A DNA stretch of 64,000 nucleotides, taken from IMG/VR virus record IMGVR_UViG_3300037309_000121; one strand, 5' to 3'. This stretch comes from a virus. Made by a program: the position numbers and the translations under genes. Of this stretch, positions 11,616 to 59,926 are shown piece after piece (position 1 is the stretch's first letter; every line of letters begins with the position of its first letter). Under the pieces are notes generated by a model. It was not told the DNA's origin, ran no database searches, and saw only the letters and a list, made by a program, of their open reading frames with translations.

Positions 11616-11667
11616 GATCACCCAAGAAGACCTGAAGTCAATCTCAGCCCGGAGGGATCGCAATCTC

Positions 11668-39884: not shown

Positions 39885-39888
39885 CGTA

Positions 39889-39916
39889 TTGCCTTCTGGC
39901 CATCGAACGATATATT
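39889..39916 (+). promoter_or_regulatory. Sigma70-like promoter
   Basis: TTGCCT-N16-TATATT upstream of AGGAGG RBS and ATG 39946. Confidence 0.7.
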
Positions 39917-39945
39917 CTTCGAGTCGGATCAGGAGGATTTTTGAG

Positions 39946-40758
39946 ATGAAGTTCATCAGCAGCTGCGGCCCCATCGGGCCAGAAGATATCGCGTCCCTCA
40001 CCGGATCACAACTTCTCATCGTCCACAACGAGCTCCGCTCGGCCAACGGGGACTCGGTAACGAAGAGGTTCGCAGACAGCAAGAGCGGTCGAGAGCGGAC
40101 CACCAGGGCCTACGAGCTCTGGCGATCTCGCCAGCCGCAGCGGGCCACGCCCATCTCCCCGACCATGTCTGCCGTTCGAGCGGAGACGAAGTTGCCTCCA
40201 GCAACTTCGCGTGGGCTCTCGTCAGCCGCAAGCTCCAGGAACAAGTCTTCAGCGAGAGTCGGGGACAAAACGGAGCTCATGCGTCTCCCCGCCCGCAGAG
40301 ATATTCGCACTCACAAGCCGAACACGAGTCGCGGCAAGATCATCGCCCTCGGCTGCAGGAAGGAGGGCATCACCTCCGCGGAGATTCAGCGGATGACCGG
40401 CTGGGACCTCCAGCAGATTCGCTCCTGCCTCCGTCAGATCAACCAGCACACTGGACACGGCATCGAGGAGCGGTCCCCAGAGCACTTCTATATCTCGGGA
40501 GAGCCGCGGAAGCGCAAGAGTCTGAGCTGGGCTCCGAAGAGCGAGATCCGCGAGCACAAGAAGGGCACGAAGCGAGCCAAGGCAATACAGATGTTGCTGC
40601 GGTCGGAGGGTGCTTCGTTCGAGGACATCAAGGCAGCCTGCAGCTGGAACGACGTCCAGGCATACGAGGGCATCAAGCTCCTCCACGGCTACCTGGGCTA
40701 CGGCATCGAGGAGAAGGACGGGGTCATCCGCGCCTACACCAAGGAGAAGCAGAAGTGA
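39946..40758 (+). CDS. Basic protein with two DUF3489-like winged-helix repeats
   Basis: KIIALGCRKEGITSAEIQRMTGW and KAIQMLLRSEGASFEDIKAACSW. Confidence 0.6.
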   Translation: MKFISSCGPIGPEDIASLTGSQLLIVHNELRSANGDSVTKRFADSKSGRERTTRAYELWRSRQPQRATPISPTMSAVRAETKLPPATSRGLSSAASSRNKSSARVGDKTELMRLPARRDIRTHKPNTSRGKIIALGCRKEGITSAEIQRMTGWDLQQIRSCLRQINQHTGHGIEERSPEHFYISGEPRKRKSLSWAPKSEIREHKKGTKRAKAIQMLLRSEGASFEDIKAACSWNDVQAYEGIKLLHGYLGYGIEEKDGVIRAYTKEKQK

Positions 40759-41048
40759 CTAGACAGGAGCTGTCGCTCCTCCTGTTCCTCGAGACCCAGG
40801 CCGTCGATAATGGCGGCAAGGTGCGGACGAACCGCATGAACAAGGAGGAGCTCGAACTGGCCCGCCGGTGGAACGACGAGGGCTTTTTGCAGTTCGGTCG
40901 CCTGAAGATGGCGGACATCGACGGTGAGCGAACGCGGGACGTCGCGACCCACTGGGTGAGACTCTCAGACGTCGCCTGGACCACGGCCCACGCCGAGCGC
41001 CGGAAGCGGGCCGAGCGGTGCGAGTCAGTGAAGGACTACCCGAAGTGA
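40755..41048 (+). CDS. Hypothetical protein
   Basis: GTGA coupling to upstream gene. Confidence 0.65.
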   Translation: MTRQELSLLLFLETQAVDNGGKVRTNRMNKEELELARRWNDEGFLQFGRLKMADIDGERTRDVATHWVRLSDVAWTTAHAERRKRAERCESVKDYPK

Positions 41049-41212
41049 AGACGAGGCCCACCATCTGTCCGATCTGCAGGGTTCGCAAGCATCGCTGCGC
41101 GTGGCAAGGAGTTCAGCCCTGGCTGAAGCGCATCAGCTGGTGGTGGTGCGAGCGATGCAACTACGTCTTCTATCAGGTGATATTGGTCAGGAGCAAGGAG
41201 AGGCTGCAGTGA
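41045..41212 (+). CDS. 55-aa Cys/Trp-rich Zn-finger-like peptide
   Basis: Coupled at both ends; CPIC...WWWCERC. Confidence 0.5.
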   Translation: MKTRPTICPICRVRKHRCAWQGVQPWLKRISWWWCERCNYVFYQVILVRSKERLQ

Positions 41213-41439
41213 GGTGCTACAACGGATGTCCCGACAGCAAGCTGAAGGCGTATCTGGACGAGCAGGCTTCTCTGCGACGGCAGATCGATGCTCTAGGCTA
41301 CCGTGTCACGTGGTTCCCCAGTGGTGAGTTCTATCAAGCGTTCACGAGGAACCTTCAGCCCGTGGGCAAAGAGCACCGCTCGCTCACAGAGGTGCTCGAA
41401 GAAGTGAGGAGTCTGCACAGTGGGAACGCGCAAGTATGA
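41209..41439 (+). CDS. Hypothetical protein
   Basis: GTGA coupling; GGAG RBS. Confidence 0.55.
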   Translation: MRCYNGCPDSKLKAYLDEQASLRRQIDALGYRVTWFPSGEFYQAFTRNLQPVGKEHRSLTEVLEEVRSLHSGNAQV

Positions 41440-42325
41440 CAAGCTGAGCATCGAGGACTTCGGGGCTCACCTGCTCGACAACCTCGACCTTGACCCGATC
41501 TACGTGGCCCTGCACCGTCTGCAGTGCACTGAGGGAGGTTGGGACCTAGCCACGATCTACCGCTGGCTCGTCGCCTACTGGTGCTTCTACCACGCCGGGG
41601 CCGCGTGCTACATCGCCTCCCGACCGCGAGAGGAGTTCTGGGACTGGATGGAGCGGGCGGCTGCGAATCGCGTCGAAGAACCGTGCCCGCTGGGCGGGAA
41701 CGCCGTGAACGGAGGCTGGCCGCGAGGCCACGAGCGCCGCCACTTCCGCGGAGCCCAGGGCTACGCCGCGGTGAAGGAGCTGAAGGCGAAGTACCCGGAG
41801 CCCGAGGACTTCGTCGTCGCCCTGCAGAGAGTCGACGCGGGGACCAGCGTCCCGTTCTCCAAGCTCTCGGAGAAGATCCGGGAGCACCGGAGCTTCGGCC
41901 CCTGGATCGCCTTCAAGGTTGGCGACATGCTGGATCGCGTGCTCGGCAAGCAGGTTGACTTCACCGAGGCCGAGGTGTTCATGTTCGAGGCCCCGCGGGA
42001 AGCCGCCATCCTCCTGTGGCGCACGAAGCAGAACCTCCCGGAAGGTGCGAAGCCGAAGGACGAGACCCAGGTCATCAAGCGGGTCGTGCAGTACCTCGTG
42101 GACTACTTCGCGGGAGCGCCCCACGAGAAGCGAGCGCCACCTTCCTACGACCGGATGGTCGGTCTGCAGGAGATCGAGACGATCCTCTGCAAGTGGAAGA
42201 GCCACATGACGGGCTCGTACCCACTGTGGAACGATATCGACGAGATCAACGCCGGGCTGTCCCTCTGGAGCGAGACGTGTCCGGCAGTCCAAGAATTCCT
42301 CAGGCACATGCCGAAGCGCCGATGA
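41420..42325 (+). CDS. Amino acid:DNA transferase (AADT, aGPT-Pplase2 family)
   Basis: DLDPIY, RWLVAYWCFYHAGAA, WPRGHERRHFRG, FGPWIAFKVGDM, QEIETILCKWKSH; matches recalled M6 gp51 / PaMx11 gp47 type. Confidence 0.88.
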   Translation: MGTRKYDKLSIEDFGAHLLDNLDLDPIYVALHRLQCTEGGWDLATIYRWLVAYWCFYHAGAACYIASRPREEFWDWMERAAANRVEEPCPLGGNAVNGGWPRGHERRHFRGAQGYAAVKELKAKYPEPEDFVVALQRVDAGTSVPFSKLSEKIREHRSFGPWIAFKVGDMLDRVLGKQVDFTEAEVFMFEAPREAAILLWRTKQNLPEGAKPKDETQVIKRVVQYLVDYFAGAPHEKRAPPSYDRMVGLQEIETILCKWKSHMTGSYPLWNDIDEINAGLSLWSETCPAVQEFLRHMPKRR

Positions 42326-42522
42326 AGAAGATATCTGCAATCCTCTCGCTCGTCGTCCTGAGCGGATGCTCTTCGGCTCCGAGCAGACCTGAGGGATTTT
42401 GCAGCCGTGGGGTCCCGCTCGAGAGTCCCAGCTCCTGGAGGAGCGGCATCGTCGATCAGTCGATAGAGGAGGCCGATCGTCGGCAGTTCCTGCGCCAGCT
42501 CGAGAAAGAGGTTCGACAGTGA
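42322..42522 (+). CDS. Small lipoprotein
   Basis: MKKISAILSLVVLSG-C lipobox, 66 aa, ATGA coupled. Confidence 0.65.
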   Translation: MKKISAILSLVVLSGCSSAPSRPEGFCSRGVPLESPSSWRSGIVDQSIEEADRRQFLRQLEKEVRQ

Positions 42523-42626
42523 GAAGTCGCAAGCTCTACCAGTTCCTGGTCGGATTCTTCGAAGGTCTTTTCGTCGGATTCGTCGTCGGCCTGTCCATCG
42601 TGATCTTCTTCCTGGAGGTCCTGTGA
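42519..42626 (+). CDS. 35-aa single-TM membrane peptide
   Basis: RSRKLYQFLVGFFEGLFVGFVVGLSIVIFFLEVL; GTGA coupled both sides. Confidence 0.5.
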   Translation: MRSRKLYQFLVGFFEGLFVGFVVGLSIVIFFLEVL

Positions 42627-43483
42627 ACACCATCAACGTCGTCGGTGCAGGCATCGCCGGATCTTTGGTCGCTCGCGTCCTCCGCGCTCGCGGGCACACG
42701 GTTCGGGTCATCGACGACTGCGACGTCAACTCCGCGAGCCGTGCCAGCAGCAACTTGTACATCGGGAGCTGGCTGAAGAAGTTCGGCAGCCCCGCAGCGT
42801 CGAACGGCATCCGCGTCGTCGAGGAGCTCTTCGCCGGGAAGATCGACCAGCCTTTCAGTCGCGGGATCGCCGACGCCGCTAGGGTGCGGCACATCGCCCA
42901 GCGGCACCTGCTCGTCGATCCCGATGTGGTCGGCACCGCTACCTCAGTTCACCAGGTTGACGACCCGTTTCCCCCGAACTACGGGGGTGGAGTCAAGGTG
43001 TCTGTGCTCGGAGGTAGGTTCTTCCCCGGACGAACCGTCATCTGCACCGGCTATCGAGGTGCGGAGCTCGTTCCCGGCCTGAAGGTCGACGTCAAGGTCG
43101 GCCACGGCATCCACTTCCGCGGCCGCCTGCCGGAGGGGAAGAGCTCGCTCACGCTGGCCTCTCCCTACACGCACGCGAAGCTCTACCAGCTCGACGAGGA
43201 CACGATCTACTTCGCAGACTCCGTCGCCGTGACCCGAGGTACCTACGACAAGCGGAGGAAGGAACTCATGGACCGCACCATGGCCCGCGCGGTCAAGCTG
43301 ATCGGGTTCGAGCCCGAGGTGAAGTCCATCCTCGTCGGCTACCGGCCGTTCGTCTCCGGACACGACTTCGGTTACCTCGCGCAGGTGAAGCCGGGCGTGT
43401 GGGTGCTGAACGGGGGTGGGAAGAACGGCATCGTGGCCTACGCCGACGCGGCAGATCGGCTCGCGAAGGAGATCGGGTCGTGA
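42623..43483 (+). CDS. FAD-dependent oxidoreductase (glycine/D-amino-acid oxidase-like)
   Basis: VVGAGIAG Rossmann motif, SRASS, GYRP, NGGGKNGI. Confidence 0.85.
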   Translation: MNTINVVGAGIAGSLVARVLRARGHTVRVIDDCDVNSASRASSNLYIGSWLKKFGSPAASNGIRVVEELFAGKIDQPFSRGIADAARVRHIAQRHLLVDPDVVGTATSVHQVDDPFPPNYGGGVKVSVLGGRFFPGRTVICTGYRGAELVPGLKVDVKVGHGIHFRGRLPEGKSSLTLASPYTHAKLYQLDEDTIYFADSVAVTRGTYDKRRKELMDRTMARAVKLIGFEPEVKSILVGYRPFVSGHDFGYLAQVKPGVWVLNGGGKNGIVAYADAADRLAKEIGS

Positions 43484-44373
43484 GGCACGAGGTGCTCGTC
43501 GGTGATTCCCTGTCGTTACTGCAGTCGCTCGAGGACGAGCGATTCCAGTGCTGCGTCACCTCGCCACCCTACTGGGGGCTGAGGCACTACGGAGCTGAGG
43601 GGGAGATCGGTCGAGAGCAATCGGTGCAGGAATACGTCGATAGGCTCGTGGCCGTATTCTCTGAGGTTCGCCGAGTTCTCAGGTCGGACGGCACGCTCTG
43701 GCTGAACATCGGCGACACGTACACCTCCGGTGGGCGGGCTACCTTCAGGAGCAGCGCCTCGTCGAACAAGGGGCATCGTCGGCAAGATGATCTGCCCCGA
43801 CCGCAGACTCCCGCTGGCCTGAAGCCCAAGGAGCTCGTAGGTGTGCCGTGGCGATTGGCCTTCGCACTCCAGGCTGATGGCTGGTACCTGCGCAGCGACA
43901 TCATCTGGCACAAGCCGAACCAGATGCCGGACGCGGCGAAGGATCGACCCACGAAGGCGCACGAGTACATCTTTCTGCTCGCCAAGAGCGAGCGATACTA
44001 CTTCGATCGGCACGCGATCATGGAGAAGGCGGTGTGCCAGCGCAAGCGAGGACCGAGCCTGCACAAGGATCTTGTCTCGACGAACGGCAACGGTGGACTC
44101 AGCAGGCGGGAGCCGGAGGAGTTCCGCAACGGCAGGACTCTGTGGTCAATCAACACTGCGTCGATCAGAGGGCAGAAGCATTCGGCAGTCTTCCCCCGAT
44201 CCCTGGCAATGAAGTGCATCCGAGCTGGTTCGAGGCCAGACGACGAGGTTTTGGATCCTTTCGTCGGTTCGGGCACGACTCTGGTCGTCGCCAGGCAGCT
44301 TGGCAGAAGTGGAGTCGGCATCGAGCTGAGCTCGGAGTACGCCGACGCGGCGAGGAAAAGGATCGAAGCATGA
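43480..44373 (+). CDS. Beta-class amino-methyltransferase (N4-cytosine type, SPPY)
   Basis: VTSPPYWGLR, LWLNIGDTY, IIWHKPN, HSAVFP, LDPFVGSGTT. Confidence 0.92.
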   Translation: MRHEVLVGDSLSLLQSLEDERFQCCVTSPPYWGLRHYGAEGEIGREQSVQEYVDRLVAVFSEVRRVLRSDGTLWLNIGDTYTSGGRATFRSSASSNKGHRRQDDLPRPQTPAGLKPKELVGVPWRLAFALQADGWYLRSDIIWHKPNQMPDAAKDRPTKAHEYIFLLAKSERYYFDRHAIMEKAVCQRKRGPSLHKDLVSTNGNGGLSRREPEEFRNGRTLWSINTASIRGQKHSAVFPRSLAMKCIRAGSRPDDEVLDPFVGSGTTLVVARQLGRSGVGIELSSEYADAARKRIEA

Positions 44374-44807
44374 GCAATCGCGACGACACCATCAAGATTC
44401 GTCCCGCAACTCGTGGTGATCACGAAGTCCTGCTGGCTATCGCCAAGAGCCACAAAGCCACACGTGACTTCGGACATATCATGTTCTCTGGAGAGCAAGC
44501 ATACCAGAAAGGCTGGATCCGCGTCGCAATCGTAGCCGATCACGTTGTGGGCTTCACCTGTGTGCGGCACAAGATGCGAGAACCCAAGACCAGCTTGTAC
44601 TACATCTGCGTCAGGCCCGAGGCGAGGCGGATGAAAGTTGGTCAGGCCCTCCTGGACGACCTTACAGCCACCTCGCCGCATCGCTGCATCGAGCTCTCCT
44701 GCTTCAAGGACAACGCGGAGGCCCTGGCCTTTTACGCGAAGAACGGGTTCGAGCAGAAGGGTGAGGCTCTGAAGGGCAAGGGTTGGCATCTGGAGAAGAC
44801 CTGGTGA
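44370..44807 (+). CDS. GNAT-family N-acetyltransferase
   Basis: ICVRPEARRMKVGQALL, DNAEALAFYAKNGF; ATGA coupled. Confidence 0.88.
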   Translation: MSNRDDTIKIRPATRGDHEVLLAIAKSHKATRDFGHIMFSGEQAYQKGWIRVAIVADHVVGFTCVRHKMREPKTSLYYICVRPEARRMKVGQALLDDLTATSPHRCIELSCFKDNAEALAFYAKNGFEQKGEALKGKGWHLEKTW

Positions 44808-44950
44808 GAACTTGCCCAGACAGGCTGTGTGTTGGCTATTCTTTCTGGCCTCATCCGCTGGTGTGGTGGTGGCGCGGTTGGAGACGCTGGCCACTTTGTC
44901 GGGCTTGTCGCTTCTGCGGCAGGCAAACTGTTCGGAGGTTCAACCCATGA
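44804..44950 (+). CDS. 48-aa Trp/Cys/Arg-rich micro-ORF (below ORF-track threshold)
   Basis: GTGA overlap with GNAT stop and ATGA overlap with kinase start; RTCPDRLCVGYSFWPHPLVWWWRGWRRWPLCRACRFCGRQTVRRFNP. Confidence 0.5.
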   Translation: MRTCPDRLCVGYSFWPHPLVWWWRGWRRWPLCRACRFCGRQTVRRFNP

Positions 44951-45627
44951 TCATCAACATCCGAGGCACGTCCGGCTCCGGGAAGACAACGCTTGTGCGC
45001 AAGGTCTTCGACCATCTGCAGGCTGGGAACCACACGAAGACTGAGTGGCACCTCGACGAGCAGGACTGGAGCCACCCCCTGCTCGCTGGGCTCCGACCAG
45101 AGCGCGAGCGCAAGCGCCCGTGGGGGTACGTCCTCGAGAACCGCGAGAGAAGGGCGAACGTCGTCGTGCTCGGCTCCTACGAGAGCGAGTGTGGAGGCTG
45201 CGACTCCATCTCGGGCCTCGACCTCATGTACGGCCTGGCGAGGCTCGCGCACGAGCGGCGATACCACGTCATCTTCGAGGGCCTCATCATCAACTCCGAC
45301 TTCAAGCGAGCGGCCCAGCTCGCGACGGACCAGATCCCGCACCTGCTCATCTACCTGAGTACCCCGCTGGAGCAGTGCATCCAGTCGGTCGAGCACCGGA
45401 GGAACCAGTCCAAGCGGGCCGAAAAGTTCCGCGCCGCTGGCGGGGAAATGCCTGCATTCAACCCGGCGAACACGCGGGCGAAGTACGACCTCAACCTCAA
45501 GATGATCGATCGCATGCGTGCGGCAGGAGTGAGCTGCCTGAGCCTCGCTCGCGACGAGGCGTTCCTCGAGATCTCGAAGCTCCTCGCCGAGCCCTGGACG
45601 GAGAAGTCGGGAAAGGTTCCGCAGTGA
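44947..45627 (+). CDS. P-loop nucleotide kinase associated with 5-hmdU modification
   Basis: INIRGTSGSGKTT; LGSYESECGGCDSI; VIFEG. Confidence 0.8.
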   Translation: MIINIRGTSGSGKTTLVRKVFDHLQAGNHTKTEWHLDEQDWSHPLLAGLRPERERKRPWGYVLENRERRANVVVLGSYESECGGCDSISGLDLMYGLARLAHERRYHVIFEGLIINSDFKRAAQLATDQIPHLLIYLSTPLEQCIQSVEHRRNQSKRAEKFRAAGGEMPAFNPANTRAKYDLNLKMIDRMRAAGVSCLSLARDEAFLEISKLLAEPWTEKSGKVPQ

Positions 45628-46502
45628 ACAGAGACAACGTCAACCTCTTCTTCGCAATCGCTCGGGAGCGGTACGCAATCAAGCTCCGCCGGGAGAAGAT
45701 GCCGCACAGCCCCGAGCAGTGGAGCGAAGATCCCATCTTCCGGCAGTGGAGATTCTGCAACGTCTTCCGCGAAGACGACAAGACCACCGCGTGGTTCCGC
45801 CGCAACATACGCGGCCCGCTCTCGCTTCGCGGACCAGATGTCCTGCTCGCAACGACACTGTTCAGATGGTTCAACCGCATCGAGACAGCCGACAAGATCG
45901 TCGAGTTCATGACTGTCGAGGGCTACAGCGAAGACGGGATCCGGAAGGTGCTGGAGGGGCACAAGCCGCTCGTCACCGGATCTTACGTCATCAAGACTCC
46001 GGACGGCCTCAGCAAGCTCGAGGGCATCCTCTCCTGCATGCGCCCCATCGTCAGGGACGCCGTGCAACTGGCCACGCACGTCGAGCCAGACACGACTCTC
46101 GAGGGGATGTGGACAGTCCTCCGGATGTACCCCTACCTCGGCTCCTTCATGGCCTACGAGGTCGTGAGCGACCTCCGCCACACCTGCTTGCTTCAGAACG
46201 CGCCAGACATCATGACCTGGGCGGCAGCGGGGCCGGGCTGCGCGCGCGGGCTGGGCTGGGTCGTCGCTGGAGATCCCGAAGCGTACAACTACAACTCCGC
46301 CAAGGGTCAGGCCAGGATGCTGTCCTGCATGCGAGAACTTCTGAGCATGAGCCAGAGCAGCGAGTACTGGCCCGAATCTTGGCCGAGGTGGGAGATGCGG
46401 GAGGTCGAGCACTGGCTCTGCGAGACGTGGAAGTACGTGCGGTGTCGAGATCACGGGCAGCCGCCCAGGGGGAGGTTCCGGTGCACCACCCCAGCAACCT
46501 GA
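45624..46502 (+). CDS. 5-hydroxymethyluracil DNA kinase helical domain (aGPT-Pplase1 family)
   Basis: ARERYAI...WSEDPIFRQWRFCNVFREDDKTT, FRWFNR, FMAYEVVSDL, GPGCARGL, REVEHWLCE. Confidence 0.88.
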   Translation: MNRDNVNLFFAIARERYAIKLRREKMPHSPEQWSEDPIFRQWRFCNVFREDDKTTAWFRRNIRGPLSLRGPDVLLATTLFRWFNRIETADKIVEFMTVEGYSEDGIRKVLEGHKPLVTGSYVIKTPDGLSKLEGILSCMRPIVRDAVQLATHVEPDTTLEGMWTVLRMYPYLGSFMAYEVVSDLRHTCLLQNAPDIMTWAAAGPGCARGLGWVVAGDPEAYNYNSAKGQARMLSCMRELLSMSQSSEYWPESWPRWEMREVEHWLCETWKYVRCRDHGQPPRGRFRCTTPAT

Positions 46503-46963
46503 GCAAGGCCGAGCTCGACGCGGCCTTCGACAACTCCGACTCCCGGCTGACCATCGCCGTCGACTTCGACGGAACGATCGTCGACCACCGCTACCCGGAC
46601 ATCGGAGCGCCCGCCTGCGGCGCGTTCGACTGGCTCCGCGAGCTGAAGCGGCGGGGCGTCAAGCTCATCCTCTGGACCATGCGGTCGGATTCGTCGAAGG
46701 ACGGTCCCACCCTGACGGACGCGGTCGAGTTCTGTCGGAGGCACGGCGTCGAGTTCGACCACGTCAACGAGAACCCGGGTCAGCGCACGTGGACCACGTC
46801 CCCGAAGTGCTACGCCCACATGTACATCGACGATGCCGCGGTGGGAGTGCCCCTCCGCGACTCGCCCCGAGCCGGTGGGCGACCAGTCGTCGACTGGCAC
46901 CGGCTCGGACCCATGATCCTCGAGCGGGTGCACGCTCACAACGACCGGAGGAAGAAGCCGTGA
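46481..46963 (+). CDS. HAD-superfamily hydrolase (BT0820-like)
   Basis: IAVDFDGTIV, ILWTMRS, FDHVNEN, KCYAHMYIDD. Confidence 0.85.
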   Translation: MHHPSNLSKAELDAAFDNSDSRLTIAVDFDGTIVDHRYPDIGAPACGAFDWLRELKRRGVKLILWTMRSDSSKDGPTLTDAVEFCRRHGVEFDHVNENPGQRTWTTSPKCYAHMYIDDAAVGVPLRDSPRAGGRPVVDWHRLGPMILERVHAHNDRRKKP

Positions 46964-47006
46964 ACGAATCCTGGTTCGAGCACCGGAAGTCTCGGAGCCG
47001 CTGAGC

Positions 47007-47387
47007 GTGCCGCAGCGCCCGCCAGCGTACCTGCCGCCCGTCACCGACGACAAGGTCGTCGCGAGGTTCACCTCGCGCCTGTCCATGCCGGGGAACGACG
47101 CCTGCTGGTTCTGGTGGGGGCACGTCTCGGAGAAGGGCTACGGGCAGTTCTGGATGAGTGGCCGCGCCCACTGGGCGCACCGAGTTGCTTATGCGATCTG
47201 GGTCGGGGAGATCCCTGCGGGCATGACCCCCGACCACACGTGCGGGCGAGCTTCGTGCGTCAATCCGCACCACCTCACGCTTGTCACAATCTCCGAGAAC
47301 TCGAGCAATCGCTGGAAGAGGCAACGCGAGGGTTGCCCTAGCAGGGACGAGAGCTATACTCCCGAACAAGGAAACTCAACATGCTGA
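47007..47387 (+). CDS. HNH endonuclease
   Basis: CWFWWG, GYGQF, AHRVAY, PDHTCGRASCVNPHHL. Confidence 0.88.
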   Translation: MPQRPPAYLPPVTDDKVVARFTSRLSMPGNDACWFWWGHVSEKGYGQFWMSGRAHWAHRVAYAIWVGEIPAGMTPDHTCGRASCVNPHHLTLVTISENSSNRWKRQREGCPSRDESYTPEQGNSTC

Positions 47388-48418
47388 CGATCAAGGCCCG
47401 CAACGTACACCAGGCACTCCCAGAGATGATGCACCAGCTCCGCGCCAACGGAGTGCGCAGGGAGAGCCGCAACGGCTCGGTTCTGGTCTTTCCCTACCCT
47501 GTCGTGGTCGAGTACGCTCGACCCCAGGAGAGGGTCATGTACTGGCGCGAGCGGGACTGCAACCCGTTCTTCCACTTCTTCGAGGCGCTCTGGATGCTGG
47601 GGGGCCGCCGAGACGTAGCCTTCCCCTCGCGGTTCAACAGCACCTTCGGGCAGTTCAGCGACGACGGCGTCGTCTTCAACGGAGCCTACGGGTACCGGTG
47701 GCACGACCACTTCGGCCACAACCAGCTCGAGATCGTCGCCCAGCGGCTGAGGGCGAATCCCGACGACCGGCGAGTCGTCCTCGGGATGTGGGATCCTCGG
47801 GAGGATCTCGGCTCTTCCAGCAAGGACGTGCCGTGCAACCTAAGTGCCTGCTTCCAGCGGGGCGCTGACGGCGAGCTGAACATGACGGTCTACAACCGCT
47901 CCAACGACATCGTCTGGGGCGCGCTCGGGGCGAACGCGGTGCACTTCAGCGTGCTCCAGGAGTTCCTGGCGCTCGCCATCGGGTGCCCCGTCGGACGGTA
48001 CTGGCAGATCTCCTGCAACATGCACGGATACCTGAAGACGATCGAACCTCTCCTGTCGCTGTCGGACAAGTCCTTCCCCTCGAGGTATGCGCAACTCACG
48101 GACCCCTACGAGCAGGGCGACGTCCAGCCGCTCGAGATGTTCCCCTCCGGCACTGGAGGAGACTTCGTCAGCGACCTCGCGATGTTCCTCGACGAGGGCG
48201 AGCGGGCGATGGGGTACAAGACGAAGTTCATGCGCCGCGTCGCGATGCCGATGCTGCGGTCGTGGCTCGCGTTCAAGGACAGCAGCAACCCTACTAGGTT
48301 CGAGGAGGCGATGCGCATCGTGAACGACTGCCAGGCTACAGACTGGAGGCTCGCCTGCGGCCAGTGGCTCTCCGTCCGTCAGCAGAAGGCAGCTGCGAAA
48401 GCAGTCCAAGAGGAGTGA
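47381..48418 (+). CDS. Thymidylate synthase homologue, probable dUMP hydroxymethylase
   Basis: NPFFHFFEALWML, DVPCN catalytic Cys, RSND..WGA.GAN with Asn at the dUMP-specificity position; context of hmdU-modifying genes. Confidence 0.88.
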   Translation: MLTIKARNVHQALPEMMHQLRANGVRRESRNGSVLVFPYPVVVEYARPQERVMYWRERDCNPFFHFFEALWMLGGRRDVAFPSRFNSTFGQFSDDGVVFNGAYGYRWHDHFGHNQLEIVAQRLRANPDDRRVVLGMWDPREDLGSSSKDVPCNLSACFQRGADGELNMTVYNRSNDIVWGALGANAVHFSVLQEFLALAIGCPVGRYWQISCNMHGYLKTIEPLLSLSDKSFPSRYAQLTDPYEQGDVQPLEMFPSGTGGDFVSDLAMFLDEGERAMGYKTKFMRRVAMPMLRSWLAFKDSSNPTRFEEAMRIVNDCQATDWRLACGQWLSVRQQKAAAKAVQEE

Positions 48419-48420
48419 GC

Positions 48421-48888
48421 ATGTCCCAGAACATCTACCTGATCTGTCCCGTCCGCCGCTGCACTCCGGAGGTGAGAGCGGTCATGGACGCCTACGTCGC
48501 TGGCCTGGAGGCCAGGGGACACAAGGTGCACTACCCTCCTCGCGACGTCGACCAGAGCAACGACGACGGCGGAGTTAGGATCTGCCAGGAGCACCTGCAC
48601 GCCATGCTCGCTTGCGACGCGGTGCACGTGTGGTGGGATCCCGCGAGCACCGGCTCGCACTTCGATCTCGGGATGGCCTACGCGATGCATGCTATCCGAC
48701 TCGTGCTACACCTGAAACTGGGCGTGAGCGGGTTGAAGGAACTCGACCAGAAGCACGGCATCGACGTGGGACCTATCCCGCAATTCTTCATCGCCAACCA
48801 CGACCAGGTCAAGACCGATCCGGAGAAGTCATTCACAAATGTTTTGCTGAGCATGGCGGAAATGCCGAGGGTAGTGACCCATGACTGA
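48421..48888 (+). CDS. Nucleoside 2-deoxyribosyltransferase-like protein
   Basis: IYLICPVR, VHYPPRD, AMLACDAVHVWWD, STGSHFDLGMAYA. Confidence 0.7.
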   Translation: MSQNIYLICPVRRCTPEVRAVMDAYVAGLEARGHKVHYPPRDVDQSNDDGGVRICQEHLHAMLACDAVHVWWDPASTGSHFDLGMAYAMHAIRLVLHLKLGVSGLKELDQKHGIDVGPIPQFFIANHDQVKTDPEKSFTNVLLSMAEMPRVVTHD

Positions 48889-49276
48889 ACCCGTACCAAT
48901 CGTCGCCACACCAAGTGGGGAGATCATCACTCCCGAAGAGTCCTTGGCGAGGGACAGCGGCGAGGGATTCCTCGCCCAGCTCGACGCAATTGCCCAGGAG
49001 GACGCGGCGGGGTTGAAGAAGGCGTACGAGTCCTACGGCCCGAGCTGGAAGACGAGAGGCGGCGTTGGGGCCTACATGATGGCGTGCCGCAAGTTCGATC
49101 GGCTAGAGAATCGCGTGAAGAGGCTGGGCTGGGACGTGTTCCGCGCAATCGCGGAGGACGATCGTGGCGAGGGCTGCATCGACGACGTGCGAGATCTGAG
49201 GCGATACCTCATGCTGATCGAGGCGGAGATGCGGGCGCGGGGGTTCCGGAGGACGCATAGGGACAACAAGACATGA
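48881..49276 (+). CDS. Nucleotide-modification-associated helical protein (MazG-like fold candidate)
   Basis: [25 protein letters not shown]...[15 protein letters not shown]. Confidence 0.6.
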
Positions 49277-49395
49277 GAGTTTCTCTGATATTCGCCTGGT
49301 ACGACCTGTGGGTGGGTTTTTTCTGGGACAGGAAGAAGAGGTGGCTCTATTTCTTTCCAATTCCCATGCTTGGTGTCATCCTCAAGTTCTCATAG
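49273..49395 (+). CDS. 40-aa aromatic-rich peptide (below ORF-track threshold)
   Basis: ATGA coupled; [40 protein letters not shown]. Confidence 0.55.
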
Positions 49396-49398
49396 AAC

Positions 49399-51312
49399 AT
49401 GCAGCTCCCGATGTTCCGCCCATCCTGCTCGTGGGAGCTGACTCCCGTCTCGCAGCTGCCCTCCTGGGCGAATGCCGAACGGGTGTGCGTCGACCTCGAG
49501 ACCCGCGACCCCCAGCTGAAGAAGCTGGGGCCGGGCGTCCGCCGCGACGGCAAGGTCGCTGGCATCGCCTTCACCATCGAGGACGGGCCGAGCCACTACC
49601 TCCCGATCGGTCACAGCGAGGACAACCTCGACCCGGCGCACGTCTGGGCCTACATCCGCGACCAGTTCCGCGCCTTCCGGGGGTGGGTCGTCGGCTCCAA
49701 CTTCCAGTACGACCTGGACTACCTCTGGCAGAACGACGTGGAGATGCCCAACATCAAGGGCATCCGCGACATCCAGGTCGCCGAGCCGCTCATCGACGAG
49801 CTCCAGGACGAGTACAACACCGACGCCATCGCGGCCCGGTACGGCCTGCCCGGCAAGAACGAGACGATCCTGCGCGACGCGGCTACGGCCTTCGGGGTCG
49901 ACGCGAAGAAGGGGCTGTACCTCCTCCCTGGCCGATACGCGGTTGAGTACGCGATGCAGGACACGCGGGTGCCGCTCCAGGTGCTCCGCCGCCAGGAGCG
50001 CCGGATCGAGGAGGCGGGCCTCTGGAAGATCTTCGACCTGGAGACGAAGCTCCTCCCCGTGCTCGTCAAGATGCGACGCCGCGGCGTGCGAGTCGACTTC
50101 CACAAGCTCACAGAGGTCGAGAAGTGGACAATCGAGCAGCAGCACACCGCGCTGCTGAAGGTGAAGCACGAGACCGGGATCGCGCTCGCCCTGACGGATG
50201 TGACAAAGCCGCAGGCGCTCGCGAAGGTTCTCACCCACATCGGGGTCGAGTGCCCCACCACGCCGAAGACCGGCCAGCCCAGCGTGTCGAAGGAGCTCCT
50301 CGCGTCCATCAAACACCCGGTCGGAGCCCTGCTCCTCCGGGCCAGGAAGATGGACAAGCTCCGCAACACGTTCGTCTCCTCCGTCCGCGAGCACGCGGTC
50401 AACGGTCGCATCCACACGACCTTCAACCAGCTCCGCAAGAGCTCGGACGACGAGGACGAGGACGACACCGGCGCTCGGTACGGTCGCCTGAGCTCGACCG
50501 ATCCGAATCTCCAGCAGCAGCCCGCCCGCGACCCGGAGATCGGGCCGCTCTGGCGGACGATCTACGTCCCCGACGATGGCATGCTCTGGGCCGCGATGGA
50601 CTACTCCCAGCAGGAGCCGCGGCACGTAGTTCACTTCGCGGAGCGATGCAAGCTGCCCGTGGCCGACGTCATGGGCCACAAGTTCCGCACGGATCCGAAG
50701 ACCGACAACCACACCGAGATGGCCCGCATCATCGCGGGCGCGGGCGACGACTGGAAGCCGGACAAGATCATCCGCAGCCACGCGAAGGAGGTTTTCCTCG
50801 GGCTGTGCTACGGCATGGGCGGAGCGAAGCTCTGCCGCAAGCTCGGCAAGCCGACCGAGTGGGTCATGTCGCCGAAACTTGGCAAGATGATCGAGGTCGC
50901 CGGTCCCGAGGGGAAGGCCATCCTCGAGGAGTTCGATCGCAAAGTGCCCTACGTGCGGATGCTCGCGCGGCTCTGCGAGGACAAGGCGAAGAAGGATGGT
51001 GTGATCAAGACGCTTCTCGGTCGCCACTGCCACTTCCCGAGGAAGGACGACGGCACCTACGACTGGACCCACAAGGCGCTGAACCGCCTGATCCAGGGCA
51101 GCTCCGCCGACCAGACCAAGCTCGCCGTGGTCATGCTGGACGAGGCGGGCTGGACCCCGCAGCTCCAGATCCACGACGAGATCGACGACAGCGTGGCCAC
51201 CCCGGAGGACGCGGAAAAGCGGGCCGACGTCATGCGGCACTGCATCGAGCTGACGGTCCCCAGCAAGGTCGACGTCGAGATCGGCGACTCCTGGGGCGGG
51301 AGCATGAAATGA
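49399..51312 (+). CDS. polA: Family A DNA polymerase with 3'-5' exonuclease
   Basis: VDLETRD, NFQYDL, RLSSTDPNLQQQP, DYSQQEPR, KEVFLGLCYG, IQGSSADQTK, QIHDEI. Confidence 0.95.
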   Translation: MQLPMFRPSCSWELTPVSQLPSWANAERVCVDLETRDPQLKKLGPGVRRDGKVAGIAFTIEDGPSHYLPIGHSEDNLDPAHVWAYIRDQFRAFRGWVVGSNFQYDLDYLWQNDVEMPNIKGIRDIQVAEPLIDELQDEYNTDAIAARYGLPGKNETILRDAATAFGVDAKKGLYLLPGRYAVEYAMQDTRVPLQVLRRQERRIEEAGLWKIFDLETKLLPVLVKMRRRGVRVDFHKLTEVEKWTIEQQHTALLKVKHETGIALALTDVTKPQALAKVLTHIGVECPTTPKTGQPSVSKELLASIKHPVGALLLRARKMDKLRNTFVSSVREHAVNGRIHTTFNQLRKSSDDEDEDDTGARYGRLSSTDPNLQQQPARDPEIGPLWRTIYVPDDGMLWAAMDYSQQEPRHVVHFAERCKLPVADVMGHKFRTDPKTDNHTEMARIIAGAGDDWKPDKIIRSHAKEVFLGLCYGMGGAKLCRKLGKPTEWVMSPKLGKMIEVAGPEGKAILEEFDRKVPYVRMLARLCEDKAKKDGVIKTLLGRHCHFPRKDDGTYDWTHKALNRLIQGSSADQTKLAVVMLDEAGWTPQLQIHDEIDDSVATPEDAEKRADVMRHCIELTVPSKVDVEIGDSWGGSMK

Positions 51313-51809
51313 AGTTCAAGGCAGTCACCAAGGTGAAGAGGCGATATCCCAGGAGCACCCCTGGGCTGATTGCCCAGGGAGAGTTCCGCGTCAGGGGAGG
51401 CGGCTCCCTCCGGGCCAAGGTGCTCGTGTTCGAGCGGCCGCAAGATCTGCAGCGGTTCTTCGCGGAGGATCTTGGTCGCCCCGTCGGGCGGAAGTGCCTC
51501 GGCGCGGTAAGCTCGATGTCAACGTCGTTCTACGACGTGCAGCCGGGACGGGAAGTCAAGGAGCGCGTCGAGTTCGACCGCCGGTACTTCTGCCTGATCG
51601 GCCTTACCCGCAAGAACGTGACGATGCGTGTTCTGAGCCACGAGGCGGTTCACGCCGGGTTCTGCCACGCGAAGCGAGCTCGGAAGACAGACTGGGACAG
51701 GGAGGCACTTGGCTTCGACGAGGAGGCTGTCGCATATCCTGCCGGTGAGGTGGCGCGCGAGCTCGTTGTCTTCCTGGAGCGGCAGGGTATACTCGAGAAG
51801 CAGCCATGA
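51309..51809 (+). CDS. Hypothetical protein with HExxH motif
   Basis: ATGA coupled; VLSHEAVHAG...EEAVAY. Confidence 0.55.
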   Translation: MKFKAVTKVKRRYPRSTPGLIAQGEFRVRGGGSLRAKVLVFERPQDLQRFFAEDLGRPVGRKCLGAVSSMSTSFYDVQPGREVKERVEFDRRYFCLIGLTRKNVTMRVLSHEAVHAGFCHAKRARKTDWDREALGFDEEAVAYPAGEVARELVVFLERQGILEKQP

Positions 51810-52120
51810 ACGAGAACGCCCCCGAGTTCTACAGCGAGCGCCGCGTCAAGACGCGGAAGCCGCACCGCTGCTACGAGACTCGTCGAGAGATCCCGAAGGG
51901 AGCTCAGGCAGTTATCGTGACAGGCAAGTGGGACGGGAAGGTCAGCTCGATGTACTTTCTCCCAGAGGCGATGGAGCTCTGGAAGCAGGTCGACTCCCAG
52001 TACCGCAAGATGGACGAGGAGCTATGCTTCGGAGGGCTGCACGAGCACTTCGTCCAGCAGAAGCACTACAACCCCGACGACCCGCTCGTCGCCAAGTGGG
52101 AGGAGCTATGTCAGAAGTGA
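51806..52120 (+). CDS. Hypothetical protein
   Basis: ATGA coupled; KTRKPHRCYE. Confidence 0.6.
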   Translation: MNENAPEFYSERRVKTRKPHRCYETRREIPKGAQAVIVTGKWDGKVSSMYFLPEAMELWKQVDSQYRKMDEELCFGGLHEHFVQQKHYNPDDPLVAKWEELCQK

Positions 52121-52602
52121 AGTGGGACCAGCGGTTCCTCCAGATGGCGGTACTCGTCGCTGGCTGGAGCAAGGATCCGAGCACCAAGTGCGGCGCGGTC
52201 ATCGTCGCTCCCGACCGCCGAGTCATCTCCCTCGGCTTCAATGGGTTCCCGCAGCGGATGCCGGACAGACCCGAGCTGTACGCCAACCGCGACGAGAAGT
52301 ACAGCCGAATCGTCCACTGCGAGATGAATGCCGTGCTCTTCGCCAGGGAGAATCTGCGGGGCGCAACACTCTACACCTGGCCTTTCCTGTCGTGCGACCG
52401 ATGTGCGGTTCACATGATCCAAGTGGGTATCTCGCGGTGCGTAGCTCCGCTGCCAACCGACGACCACAAGAGGTGGAGTTCGAGCTTGGCAAAGACACGA
52501 CAGTACTTCAGCGAGGCTGGAGTAGAGTTCAGCGAATATCGCGTGAACAACATCACGGGATTCTCAATCCCGGAGATCACTTCTGGATCGCAACTTGGCT
52601 GA
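52108..52602 (+). CDS. dCMP deaminase
   Basis: WSKDPSTKCGAVIV, GFNGFP, VHCEMNAVL, SCDRCA. Confidence 0.92.
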   Translation: MSEVKWDQRFLQMAVLVAGWSKDPSTKCGAVIVAPDRRVISLGFNGFPQRMPDRPELYANRDEKYSRIVHCEMNAVLFARENLRGATLYTWPFLSCDRCAVHMIQVGISRCVAPLPTDDHKRWSSSLAKTRQYFSEAGVEFSEYRVNNITGFSIPEITSGSQLG

Positions 52603-53008
52603 GAAGGCAACCAACTCCAGGATCATGAAGGCGCTCCGCAAAGCTCGCCTCGACCCCGTCAGGATCGAGAACGGCGACACCTCCCCGGGGACGCCGGACA
52701 TCAACTTCATCTGGGGCTGGGTCGAGGACAAGTTTCTGCACCACTGGCCCAGGAAGGGCAGCGTCGTGAGGGTACCTCACTTTGTGCAGGAGCAGAGGGT
52801 GTGGCTCACTCGTCGGCGAACAGCTGGCGGTGGAGCTTGGTTGTTCCTCCAAGTAGGCAGAGAGTACCTGCTGTTTGACGGTAGGATTGCTGCAGAGGTG
52901 CTGGGGTTGACGGACGAGGAGACCCTCCGTCGCGCCGCTATCAAGGTATGGACAAGCGGTCTCAACGATTCGGAGCTGATAGAATGCCTGCAAAGTACAC
53001 GACTGTGA
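52595..53008 (+). CDS. PD-(D/E)xK nuclease (VRR-NUC/resolvase-like)
   Basis: PGTPDINF...WVEDK...QEQRVWL. Confidence 0.7.
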   Translation: MAEKATNSRIMKALRKARLDPVRIENGDTSPGTPDINFIWGWVEDKFLHHWPRKGSVVRVPHFVQEQRVWLTRRRTAGGGAWLFLQVGREYLLFDGRIAAEVLGLTDEETLRRAAIKVWTSGLNDSELIECLQSTRL

Positions 53009-53331
53009 CGACGAGTTCCCTCACTGCGGGGGAACGGCTCTACATCCAGCGGCGGCGCATGGGCTGGACCGTCCAGCAGGCAGCCAAGCGAGCCAGAACT
53101 ACGGTCTCCCTCTACCGAGCTTGGGAGAAGGGTCGAACCGAGTCAGATATCCCCTCGGTTGGCCTCGGTCAGCTCACGCCGCAGGAGAAGTGCGTGATCA
53201 TGAGACGCCGCTCGGGCAAGCTCGCGGTCGAGGTCGCAGCTGAGCTCGGCTGCTGTCGCCTCTGGCTTCGCCAGATGGAGAACTGCACGGCTGACGTTGG
53301 CCGCCTCCTGGAGTACTGGCGAATTCGGTGA
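52984..53331 (+). CDS. Tandem XRE-type HTH protein
   Basis: RRRMGWTVQQAAKR...YRAWEKG and RRRSGKLAVEVAAELG...LRQMEN. Confidence 0.7.
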   Translation: MPAKYTTVTTSSLTAGERLYIQRRRMGWTVQQAAKRARTTVSLYRAWEKGRTESDIPSVGLGQLTPQEKCVIMRRRSGKLAVEVAAELGCCRLWLRQMENCTADVGRLLEYWRIR

Positions 53332-55757
53332 GCACTGTCGCACCCAGCTACCCAGATTCGCTAGCCTTCCTCGAGCAGTGGCTCCCGGGAGGACCGTGGC
53401 TGCTCACAGCCATCGGCCTGGACAAGACGGGCATCGAGACCCGCGCGTTCAGGGCCGCCCAGAAGGACGAGCTCCTCGAGTGGCTGGAGCAGCAGGGCGC
53501 TCACCGCAACATCTACTTCAGCGTCAACACGTGCTTCCCCGAGTACCTCGCGAGAGCTGACGGGAATCGGTCGAAGAAGACCGAGGCTACCGACATCCAG
53601 CGGATGGTCTGCCTGCACGTCGACCTCGACCCGCGCGAGGGCGAGGACCGGACGAAGGAGCAGGAGCGGATCAAGGCTCGCCTGACGAGCAACCTCCCGC
53701 AGGGGGTGCCACCACCCTCGCTCTTGGTGTTCTCGGGCGGCGGGTACCAGGGCTTCTGGCTGCTGAGGGAGCCCGTCGTCCTCGATGGCAGCAAGCCGAT
53801 GGCGGAGGATGCCAAGCGGTGGAACCTCCAGATGGAGGTGCTCTTCGGAGCTGACCACTGCCACAACATCGACCGCATCATGCGGCTGCCGGGCACGGTC
53901 AACCGTCCCGACGCGAAGAAGAAGGCGAAGGGCCGAGTCGAGGCGCTGGCCGAGGTCGTCGAGTGGCACGCCGACCGCGTGTACGAGATCGGCCAGTTCA
54001 CCAAGGCACCAGAGGTACAGACCCCGGGTGGCGGAGACGCTAGCACCTCGGGCGTCGCCCAGCGGGTGAAGGTCAGCGGCAACGTCAAGCGGTACAACGG
54101 CGACATCGACGCGGTCCCCGGGGCTGACAAGCTCCCGGGCAAGGCTCGCGTCGTCATCGTGCAGGGCCTAGACCCGGACGAGCCGCACAAGTTCGGCAAC
54201 AGCCGGAGCGAGTGGCTCCTGTTCGCCTGCTGCGCCATGGTCCGGGCCGGGTTCGACGACGACACGATGTACGCCGTCATCACCGACCCGCGGTTCGGCA
54301 TCAGCGCCTCTGTCCTCGACAAGGGCAGCGCAACCGAGAAGTACGCGATCCGTCAGATCGAGCGGGCCAAGGAAGAGGCGGTCGACCCGTGGCTCAGGAA
54401 GCTGAACGAGAAGCACGCGGTCATCCGCAACTGGGCTGGCAAGACCCGCATCATCGAGGAGGTCTGGGATCCGATCCTCAGCCGCCACAAGGTGACGCGG
54501 ATGTCCTTCGACGACTTCCGCAACGGCTACATGCACGAGCAGGTTCAGATCGGCCAGACCGACAAGGGCGTGCCCATCACCAAGCCGGTGGGGCAGTGGT
54601 GGCTCCAGAACAACCAGCGGAGACAGTACGAAACCCTCGTGTTCGCTCCTGGGAAGGAGGTGCCCGGCGCATATAACCTCTGGCGCGGGTTCGCGTGCGA
54701 GGCGAGGCCGGGCGACTGCGGCAAGTTCCTGCACCACCTCGAGCACATCCTGTGCCGCGGCGTGAAGGAACACTACGACTACCTCATCGGCTGGATGGCC
54801 CGCTGCGTCCAGCAGCCCGCCAGCCCGGGTTACTCTGCCGTCGTGATGCGGGGCGGCATGGGCACCGGCAAGAGCTACGTCGCGAAGATGTTCGGCTCGC
54901 TGTTCGGTCGCCACTACATGTCTGTCACAGACCCGAAGCACCTCGTGGGAGCGTTCAATGCGCACCTCCGCGACTGCGTCCTCCTCCTGGGCGAGGAGGC
55001 GTTCTACGCTGGCGACAAGAAGCACGAGTCCATCCTGAAGATGCTGATCACCGAGGAGCTGATCACCATTGAGGCGAAGGGCGTCGACGCAGAGGCGAGC
55101 GGCAACTGCGTCCACCTGATGATGGCCTCGAACGAGGACTGGGTTGTGCCGACGAGCTTCGACGACCGCCGGTTCTTCGTCCTCGACATCAGCGAAGACC
55201 GGAAGGAAGACCACGCCTACTTCCAGGAGATCACAGAGCAGATGGACCGGGGCGGCCGCGAGGCGCTGCTGTACTTCCTGCTGAACTACGACCTGAAGGG
55301 ATTCAACGTGCGGAAGGTGCCGAAGACGCAAGGGCTGCAGCAGCAGAAGCTGCTCTCGATGGATCCGATGGAAGCATGGTGGTACGAGAAGCTCCAGAAC
55401 GGCAAGCTCCTCGTGGAGCACGACAGCTGGCGGCCCGAGCTCGCCTGCCAGGACCTCCAGACGGATTTCTACGAGCACTGCAGGCAGCTCAACATCGCAC
55501 GCCGAGGCGACAACACCAGGCTCGGAGAAGCGATCAAGAGATTCTGTCCCGTCGATACCCTGAAGGTGACGCAGGGTCGCTCGCCGGTCGAAGTCACAAT
55601 GCCCGGTGGGCAGCGGAAGCTGATCAGCCGCCCGTACTACTACAAGTTCCCATCCCTCGAGGAATGTCGAGACTGGTGGGACAGGAGGTTTGGAGGTCCC
55701 TACCAGTGGCGCAAGGCGGAGGACGGGGAGCCGAAGAAGGAGGAGGTTCCGTTCTGA
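53328..55757 (+). CDS. Primase-helicase (RepB-like primase + SF3/DUF5906 helicase)
   Basis: IYFSVN, LHVDLD, SGGGYQGFW, RIMRLPGT; GGMGTGKS, LLLGEEA, DRRFFVL. Confidence 0.88.
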   Translation: MSTVAPSYPDSLAFLEQWLPGGPWLLTAIGLDKTGIETRAFRAAQKDELLEWLEQQGAHRNIYFSVNTCFPEYLARADGNRSKKTEATDIQRMVCLHVDLDPREGEDRTKEQERIKARLTSNLPQGVPPPSLLVFSGGGYQGFWLLREPVVLDGSKPMAEDAKRWNLQMEVLFGADHCHNIDRIMRLPGTVNRPDAKKKAKGRVEALAEVVEWHADRVYEIGQFTKAPEVQTPGGGDASTSGVAQRVKVSGNVKRYNGDIDAVPGADKLPGKARVVIVQGLDPDEPHKFGNSRSEWLLFACCAMVRAGFDDDTMYAVITDPRFGISASVLDKGSATEKYAIRQIERAKEEAVDPWLRKLNEKHAVIRNWAGKTRIIEEVWDPILSRHKVTRMSFDDFRNGYMHEQVQIGQTDKGVPITKPVGQWWLQNNQRRQYETLVFAPGKEVPGAYNLWRGFACEARPGDCGKFLHHLEHILCRGVKEHYDYLIGWMARCVQQPASPGYSAVVMRGGMGTGKSYVAKMFGSLFGRHYMSVTDPKHLVGAFNAHLRDCVLLLGEEAFYAGDKKHESILKMLITEELITIEAKGVDAEASGNCVHLMMASNEDWVVPTSFDDRRFFVLDISEDRKEDHAYFQEITEQMDRGGREALLYFLLNYDLKGFNVRKVPKTQGLQQQKLLSMDPMEAWWYEKLQNGKLLVEHDSWRPELACQDLQTDFYEHCRQLNIARRGDNTRLGEAIKRFCPVDTLKVTQGRSPVEVTMPGGQRKLISRPYYYKFPSLEECRDWWDRRFGGPYQWRKAEDGEPKKEEVPF

Positions 55758-59924: not shown

Positions 59925-59926
59925 AC

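Follow-up and report, generated by a model that had tools for sequence, protein, structure and literature searches.

What base does a phage make when its thymidine hypermodification genes follow a known plan but include additional genes? The question is raised by positions 41420-52602 of IMG/VR virus record IMGVR_UViG_3300037309_000121, a stretch of 64,000 nucleotides that is referred to here as the window. A preliminary description of the window had assigned this region to the glycine/flavin adenine dinucleotide (FAD)/acetyl type of pathway found in Pseudomonas phage PaMx11 and had suggested, from the enlarged gene set and a likely new host, that its product is a variant. We consider it likely that the cluster, carried by a Mesyanzhinovviridae-like siphophage, is a thymidine hypermodification module of the PaMx11 type, that its product is 5-acetylaminomethyl-deoxyuridine (5-AcNmdU), and that a DNA methyltransferase (MTase) gene lying among the pathway genes acts independently of them.

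Gene content and order of the cluster

Every gene named in the preliminary description is present on the + strand within 41420-52602, as judged from Pfam, NCBIfam and fold matches and from the periodicity of G+C content at third codon positions (GC3), by which the real frames were chosen among many spurious open reading frames (ORFs). The list nevertheless omitted an N6/N4 DNA MTase, an HNH endonuclease and the ORFs at 51309-51809 and 51806-52120.

The PaMx11 pathway was reconstituted in vitro by Lee et al. (2021, Nucleic Acids Research; PMC8989533). In that pathway, the 5-hydroxymethyl-deoxyuridine (5-hmdU) DNA kinase gp49 is joined by the glycine:DNA transferase gp46, by gp47, a flavin-dependent lyase yielding 5-aminomethyl-deoxyuridine (5-NmdU), and by gp48, an acetyltransferase whose product is 5-AcNmdU (PMC8989533). 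The preliminary description had recounted the pathway in agreement with that paper.

For comparison with the window we took annotated regions from three phages: PaMx11, the M6-like Stenotrophomonas phage Bhz59, and Sonora. Collinearity with PaMx11 extends over gp45-gp59, and the window has the same enzymes in the same order, namely an amino acid:DNA transferase (AADT; 43% identical to gp46), an FAD oxidase (25%, gp47), a GNAT acetyltransferase (43%, gp48), a P-loop kinase (35%, gp49), a helical-domain protein (45%, gp50), a hydroxymethylase (49%, gp51), the DNA polymerase PolA (56%, gp55) and a dCMP deaminase (46%, gp56); the primases are 47% identical. The likeness takes in the wider replication module, in which helicases are followed by the modification genes and then by the hydroxymethylase, PolA, dCMP deaminase, a helix-turn-helix (HTH) protein and the primase. 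Synteny with gp46-gp56 at 25-56% identity, together with conserved active-site residues, thus bears out the assignment to the glycine/FAD/acetyl type.

The two phages also differ. The window oxidase lies in a separate, long-branched clade, a DNA MTase gene is placed between the oxidase and GNAT genes, and the window contains HAD, HNH, nucleoside deoxyribosyltransferase (NDT)/DNPH1-like and DUF1599-like genes, whereas the HD-domain protein gp52 of PaMx11 and its gp53 and gp54 have no counterpart in the window. The ribonucleotide reductase (RNR) is single-chain and class II-like where PaMx11 has NrdAB, and the host probably belongs to the Planctomycetota, not to Pseudomonas.

A second point of comparison is the pathway of phages M6 and YuA, which makes 5-aminoethyl-deoxyuridine (5-NedU) by means of AADT gp51, the pyridoxal phosphate (PLP)-dependent decarboxylase gp52, the radical S-adenosylmethionine (SAM) isomerase gp53 and kinase gp54. 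The M6/Bhz59 type resembles the window in having a glycine-transferring clade-2 AADT (47.5-48% identical), a kinase, a hydroxymethylase and replication-module synteny, and the virion genes are related. In contrast, the window lacks the PLP and radical SAM genes and has the FAD oxidase and GNAT instead. The absence of both M6-type genes, already stated in the preliminary description, was upheld by tblastn searches of the whole window with the Bhz59 proteins (E <= 0.01) and by the lack of such Pfam domains in the cluster ORFs.

Related clusters occur in metagenomes. A profile search with the oxidase recovered 62 IMG/VR loci, nearly all of which have an AADT, a P-loop kinase, a helical-domain protein and a thymidylate synthase (TS) homologue alongside, and 16 of which have a GNAT gene. 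The GNAT-bearing loci include the three nearest relatives of the window (UViG_3300010429_001356, 3300009838_000077 and 3300044961_000217; loci L004-L009), whose gene order is identical to that of the window except that they have no MTase. Their proteins are 85-87% (AADT), 82-83% (oxidase), 65-68% (GNAT), 84% (helical-domain protein), 98-99% (HAD; L007-L009), 87% (hydroxymethylase) and 96% (PolA; L009) identical to those of the window. Lee et al. had described PaMx11-like contigs from metagenomes before (PMC8989533), so the cluster is a further member of a known system; it probably brings no new chemistry.

Two side observations concern variation among these clusters. Identity between the window kinase and its counterpart in L007-L009 is only 42%, against 65-99% for the flanking genes and 98-99% for the adjacent HAD gene, which suggests that the kinase gene has been exchanged through gene-level mosaicism or replacement within the cluster. 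In Stenotrophomonas phage Sonora (L003), positions 8102-12166 encode an AADT, an oxidase resembling N-alpha-glycinylthymidine oxidase (NGTO) but annotated as a membrane protein, a kinase and a PF18757 protein, with no GNAT; the Sonora helical-domain protein is annotated as a second aGPT-Pplase. In this isolated phage the pathway may end at 5-NmdU or lead to a different product.

Catalytic residues and the proposed pathway

The active sites of gp46 and gp47 have been defined by crystal structures (Wen et al. 2024, Nucleic Acids Research; PMC11472151), and residues of the window enzymes were matched to them. The AADT (41420-42325) belongs to PF18724 (E 8e-25), and its PDB matches are 25qc (7e-89) and the PaMx11 glycinyltransferase 8z2m (9e-73). 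Its D25, W162 and K166 align with the glycine-binding D24, W146 and K150 of gp46, E253 and T254 with the metal ligands E243 and T244, and C257 with C247, the proposed nucleophile; the DNA-kinking residues R107, H108, R110 and F189 are also retained. By tblastn the protein is related to sequences in 95 phage records, mostly of Pseudomonas phages of the YuA/M6/PaMx11 type. The enzyme is predicted to be a clade-2 AADT orthologous to PaMx11 gp46 and M6 gp51 that transfers glycine to the phosphorylated form of 5-hmdU (5-PmdU).

The oxidase (42623-43483) matches PF01266 (1e-11), and its only PDB matches are the PaMx11 gp47 chains 8z2o and 8z79 (residues 4-284 against 5-285, E 3e-16). The gp47 base cage (W51 and K268) is represented by W50 and K267, the wedge P179-Y180 by P181-Y182, the proposed glycyl-carboxylate binder R242 by R241, and R210 by R212. 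From these correspondences we assign the protein as an FAD-dependent N-alpha-glycinylthymidine oxidase/lyase and a divergent orthologue of gp47 (NGTO). In a tree of such oxidases, a fully supported clade of five members unites the window with its close relatives and with L010 and L011. Because this clade is long-branched, the oxidase ranks as the least conserved part of the pathway. Association with a GNAT gene is scattered over the tree and requires a minimum of 4 changes and as many as 10.

The remaining polymer-level proteins also have PaMx11 counterparts. The GNAT (44370-44807) matches PF00583 (8e-12) and PF13508 (2e-11) and aligns with gp48 over its full length, across 142 residues, which marks it as the orthologue of this 5-NmdU N-acetyltransferase. 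The P-loop kinase (44947-45627) has a Walker A motif, GTSGSGKT, and matches AAA_33 (9e-7) and, weakly, PF18748 (0.0017); its start is placed at the ATG at 44947 (MIINIRG), which has a ribosome-binding site ahead of it, the ORF being formally open from 44812. The next gene (45624-46502) encodes the 5-hmdU DNA kinase helical-domain protein (PF18723, 4e-37). The preliminary description had counted a P-loop kinase and a 5-hmU DNA kinase as two enzymatic steps. By sequence they correspond instead to gp49, the 5-hmdU DNA kinase (5-HMUDK), and to gp50, which may assist the kinase.

Two enzymes would provide the precursor. The TS homologue (47381-48418; PF00303, 8.5e-18) is 47.5% identical to the Bhz59 enzyme, and among PDB structures the CMP hydroxymethylase MilA matches it best (1e-18), with thymidylate synthases behind (about 1e-10). 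The catalytic Cys is in place, and the residue at the uracil-specifying 'PFN' position of TS is Asn, as opposed to Asp in MilA. These features identify the protein, at the sequence level, as a dUMP hydroxymethylase orthologous to PaMx11 gp51. The dCMP deaminase (52117-52602; PF00383, 1e-15) has the zinc motifs HCE and CDRC and, by orthology, would supply dUMP.

The other small genes of the cluster had been described as pool-sanitising. The genes exist, but a sanitising role is a functional reading of them and not something visible in the sequence. The HAD protein (46481-46963) matches phrog_1238 (4e-29), has a DFDGT motif of the DxDGT type, and matches the NCBIfam BT0820 family at 9e-27, with a score of 94 bits that is below the family cutoff of 165 bits; it is a putative small phage HAD-type phosphatase and a candidate nucleotide-pool enzyme. 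The protein encoded at 48415-48888 scores 26.9 bits against PF05014, under the cutoff of 28.8, and has Atlas feature matches to NDT clusters. Its AlphaFold2 (AF2) model (predicted local distance difference test (pLDDT) score 74) is matched by Foldseek to NDT, DNPH1/Rcl, BlsM and BcmB with probability 0.9-1.0 and E 0.006-0.04; for NDT, DNPH1 and BcmB the probability is 0.96-1.0. We infer an NDT/DNPH1-superfamily protein that is a candidate dNMP N-glycosidase. The protein encoded at 48881-49276 has homologues in L007-L011, L033, L035, L050 and L065, and several related clusters keep the gene between the hydroxymethylase and PolA. Its AF2 model (pLDDT 80.5) gave no usable Foldseek match in the PDB; AFDB clusters of the Nmad/DUF1599 type matched with probability 0.9-1.0 but at E 0.08-1, and the model resembles a helical bundle of the DUF1599/'nucleotide modification associated domain' type.

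Older hmU phages encode dTMP-degrading activities, and it is plausible that the HAD, NDT-like and DUF1599-like proteins remove competing nucleotides. The HNH protein (47007-47387; PF13392, 1e-11) is a nuclease of the homing type, and the HAD and NDT/DNPH1-like proteins are probably nucleotide-pool enzymes. No accessory gene in this set looks like one for an enzyme that would sculpt the appended group.

Taken together, these assignments suggest the following route. Before replication, the deaminase would make dUMP, the TS-family enzyme would convert dUMP to 5-hmdUMP, cellular or other kinases would raise this to the triphosphate, and the phage PolA would put 5-hmdU in place of T, each of these steps being proposed by orthology. 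The HAD, NDT/DNPH1-like and DUF1599-like proteins would probably act, on slighter grounds, on the nucleotide pool. After replication, on the polymer, the P-loop 5-HMUDK would turn 5-hmdU into 5-PmdU, possibly assisted by the helical-domain protein. The AADT would then exchange the phosphate for glycine, with Cys257 attacking C6 to give an exocyclic methylene intermediate and, from it, N-alpha-glycinylthymidine. The FAD oxidase would oxidise the N-C-alpha bond, releasing glyoxylate and leaving 5-NmdU, and the GNAT would acetylate the amine to 5-AcNmdU at a fraction of T positions. 5-AcNmdU, reached through N-alpha-glycinylthymidine and 5-NmdU, is in our assessment the most likely product.

The inserted methyltransferase and other readings of the cluster

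The only extra gene among the polymer-level enzymes is the MTase (43480-44373). Its start overlaps the oxidase stop (GTGA) and its stop overlaps the GNAT start (ATGA), by 4 nt each. The protein matches PF01555 (1e-50), with no other MTase family above threshold, and phrog_67; its PDB matches are TTHA0409, the cytosine-N4 MTase N4CMT, CcrM, M.MboIIA and M.PvuII. The motif SPPY (motif IV) at residue 28 lies N-terminal to the SAM motif I, FVGSG, at residue 261. On these features we classify it as a beta-class N6-adenine/N4-cytosine DNA MTase.

The gene is specific to this lineage. The three closest relatives lack it, and their oxidase genes instead run straight into the GNAT gene with overlapping stop and start codons; nor does any of the 62 related IMG/VR clusters have an MTase homologue within 7 kb. 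Full-length homologues of 46-52% identity occur in unrelated phages that have no hmU genes (LESphi3, Bordetella phages, Ralstonia phages, cyanophages and mycobacteriophages), and relatives are found in more than 598 IMG/VR stretches. No gene for an AADT, oxidase, GNAT, kinase, helical-domain protein or TS homologue lies within 5 kb of any of the 80 best IMG/VR relatives.

The borders of the gene carry a possible trace of its arrival. The 11-mer GCCGACGCGGC has just two copies in the window, at 43442-43452 and 44341-44351, one for each junction of the MTase insert and some 30-40 nt upstream of it, and the oxidase and the MTase both terminate in the peptide YADAA. The pair of GCCGACGCGGC copies is consistent with a footprint of microhomology-mediated insertion. 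The AADT, oxidase, kinase and hydroxymethylase genes all have a higher GC3 than the MTase gene, and only the GNAT gene among its neighbours has a lower one. The lower GC3 and the bracketing 11-mer are together consistent with a recent insertion. We conclude from this gene's sequence and distribution that it probably encodes a recently acquired, lineage-specific and independent DNA MTase, unlinked to hmU genes. It would then be an ordinary sequence-specific m6A/m4C enzyme, carried along in the operon and adding an independent second layer of anti-restriction. A second beta-class DNA MTase gene, far from the cluster at 59708-60748, matches PF01555 (2.5e-39), with DPPY at residue 115 and FAGSG at residue 296.

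The proposal that the enlarged gene set points to a variant product is not supported by these comparisons, since the one additional polymer-level gene is a lineage-specific member of a generic phage family and none of the HNH, HAD, NDT-like and DUF1599-like proteins is plausible as a sculpting enzyme. The position of the MTase could nevertheless mean that it N-methylates 5-NmdU, as a DNA counterpart of MnmC2 acting after MnmC1, to give 5-methylaminomethyl-deoxyuridine or an N-methyl-N-acetyl derivative. The gene lies, with its short overlaps on either side, exactly between the oxidase that would generate the amine and the GNAT that would consume it, and beta-class MTases act on exocyclic amines of flipped bases. 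Moreover, MnmC1 is a homologue of gp47, and in tRNA the pathway (cmnm5U -> nm5U -> mnm5U) goes on to an N-methylation (PMC8989533). The analogy with tRNA MnmC lies in the oxidation of a glycyl-aminomethyl-uracil and in an oxidase gene followed by a methyltransferase gene. The likeness stops there, because the substrate in the window is DNA and the MTase, whose SPPY and FxGxG motifs are intact, belongs to the beta-class DNA amino-MTases of PF01555 rather than to the MnmC2 type. Instead of an MnmC2-type domain that consistently accompanies an MnmC1-like oxidase, we found a recently inserted enzyme that is missing from all 62 oxidase-bearing clusters and whose homologues are widespread in unrelated phages, the 80 best in IMG/VR having no hmU gene within 5 kb. 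We therefore regard N-methylation by this enzyme as very improbable. If it were true, the product would be a base not yet described in DNA, the DNA equivalent of the conversion of nm5U to mnm5U. Less probable again is that the cluster modifies no DNA at all, with the TS homologue a plain thymidylate synthase, or the module decayed, and the virion DNA containing canonical T. Against this reading, no ORF of the module is broken and GC3 periodicity is strong throughout. The AADT, oxidase, kinase, deaminase and TS homologue keep their catalytic residues, and diverged relatives have the whole module. The TS homologue is, in addition, orthologous to the enzymes of hmU-dependent phages, and the MilA hydroxymethylase scores better against it than any TS.

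A more serious question is whether the same gene architecture could perform other chemistry, with a divergent oxidase or AADT handling a different adduct or product such that the final base is not 5-AcNmdU but, for example, another amino-acid adduct in acetylated form. The divergence of the oxidase is the main reason for keeping this reading alive, and it leaves some doubt about the chemistry. Identity to gp47 is only 25%, whereas neighbouring proteins reach 43-49%, and the well-supported clade of five is separated by about 2.9 substitutions per site from some 48 other phage NGTO-like oxidases, that of PaMx11 included. Four DNA- or base-contacting residues of gp47 are changed (Q182H, Y244F, K48I and K202T), and the AADT has a seven-residue insertion in its Arg-rich Loop56 and Ala in place of D175. 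Lee et al. stress the combinatorial diversity of such clusters (PMC8989533). These features all count against a simple transfer of the PaMx11 route to the window, as do several of another kind: the virion DNA of PaMx11 itself has never been analysed (PMC8989533); what can be read in the window is gene content, synteny and residue conservation, with the chemistry drawn from the in vitro reconstitution and crystal structures of the PaMx11 enzymes; the HAD, NDT-like and DUF1599-like proteins are given their candidate roles from likeness of fold or family; and no dedicated hmdUMP kinase was identified. On the other side, the glycine-binding residues of gp46 and the carboxylate-binding Arg and base cage of gp47 are conserved, the AADT is nearest to two enzymes shown experimentally to be glycine-specific (48% for the M6 type and 43% for PaMx11), and four of the clade's five members have a gp48-orthologous GNAT gene after the oxidase. 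We consider a different final base unlikely on this balance, and retain the PaMx11-type route to 5-AcNmdU as the preferred account of the cluster.

The carrier phage, its host and the flanking genes

The window has a G+C content of about 62%, and nearly all of its genes are on the + strand. A single freshwater metagenome, the probable source, contains the whole stretch; all other sequencing runs contain 10% or less of the sampled words and carry no information on habitat. When isolated phages were searched at the nucleotide level, the matches were short, at about 75% identity, and confined to PolA and a capsid gene, and there is no close isolate in the collection searched. Protein-level synteny with YuA/M6/PaMx11-like phages spans the replication and modification module. 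These relationships point to a putative Mesyanzhinovviridae-like siphophage as the carrier.

As evidence on the host, we searched a tail-region protein (16108-17868) against 185,579 species genomes. Its N-terminal 60 residues or so match only proteins of metagenome-assembled genomes (MAGs) of Phycisphaerales, Phycisphaerae and Planctomycetaceae, at 34-61% identity. Because this domain matches only such genomes, a bacterium of the Phycisphaerales (Planctomycetota) is the probable host, although the support is indirect. The likely new host suggested in the preliminary description thus gains indirect backing, as a host from a new phylum. In the literature collection searched, no paper ties planctomycete phages to DNA hypermodification.

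The cluster accordingly extends the PaMx11 glycine/FAD/acetyl pathway past Pseudomonas phages to a freshwater phage lineage whose host probably belongs to the Phycisphaerales. A very divergent clade of NGTO-type oxidases that keeps the proposed catalytic cage should be of use in studies of structure and function and in tools for enzyme-assisted sequencing. The general significance is modest, unless the inserted MTase acts on the aminomethyl group, because the logic of the pathway is known and contigs of this kind have been reported before. The points of interest are the likely new host phylum, the strongly divergent oxidase clade and an oddly placed MTase that is probably unrelated to the pathway.

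Genes for an SNF2 helicase, Pam3 gp33/gp34-like proteins, an SF1 helicase and the single-chain RNR lie upstream of the cluster, and a small conserved protein, an HTH protein and the primase (53328-55757) lie downstream. Between the DUF1599-like gene and the dCMP deaminase gene, PolA, a family A DNA polymerase (49399-51312; PF00476, 1e-49), is followed by the ORFs at 51309-51809 and 51806-52120, both of which have GC3 frame support; they have no Pfam or NCBIfam match and are matched only by unnamed viral clusters or PHROGs. Scans of 39500-56000 for promoters and terminators gave nothing exceeding the shuffled expectation.

Three further ORFs were set aside. The gap between the AADT and oxidase genes (42326-42622, 298 nt) corresponds to gaps of 200-640 nt in relatives. 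A TTG-initiated ORF of 75 residues at 42399-42626, within this gap, is judged doubtful because it has no homologue in close relatives and no family match. The long alternative-frame ORFs at 45719-46963 and 50124-51809 gave shadow tblastn matches because both overlap real genes. Their coding GC3 signal is confined to their 3' parts, which are the HAD gene in the former and the ORF at 51309-51809 in the latter.

The single-chain RNR (38079-39884, 601 residues; PF02867, 1e-99) occupies the place of NrdA and NrdB in PaMx11, and its similarity to PaMx11 NrdA is weak. A tRNA at 35678-35755 (46.7 bits) is the sole Rfam match in the window.

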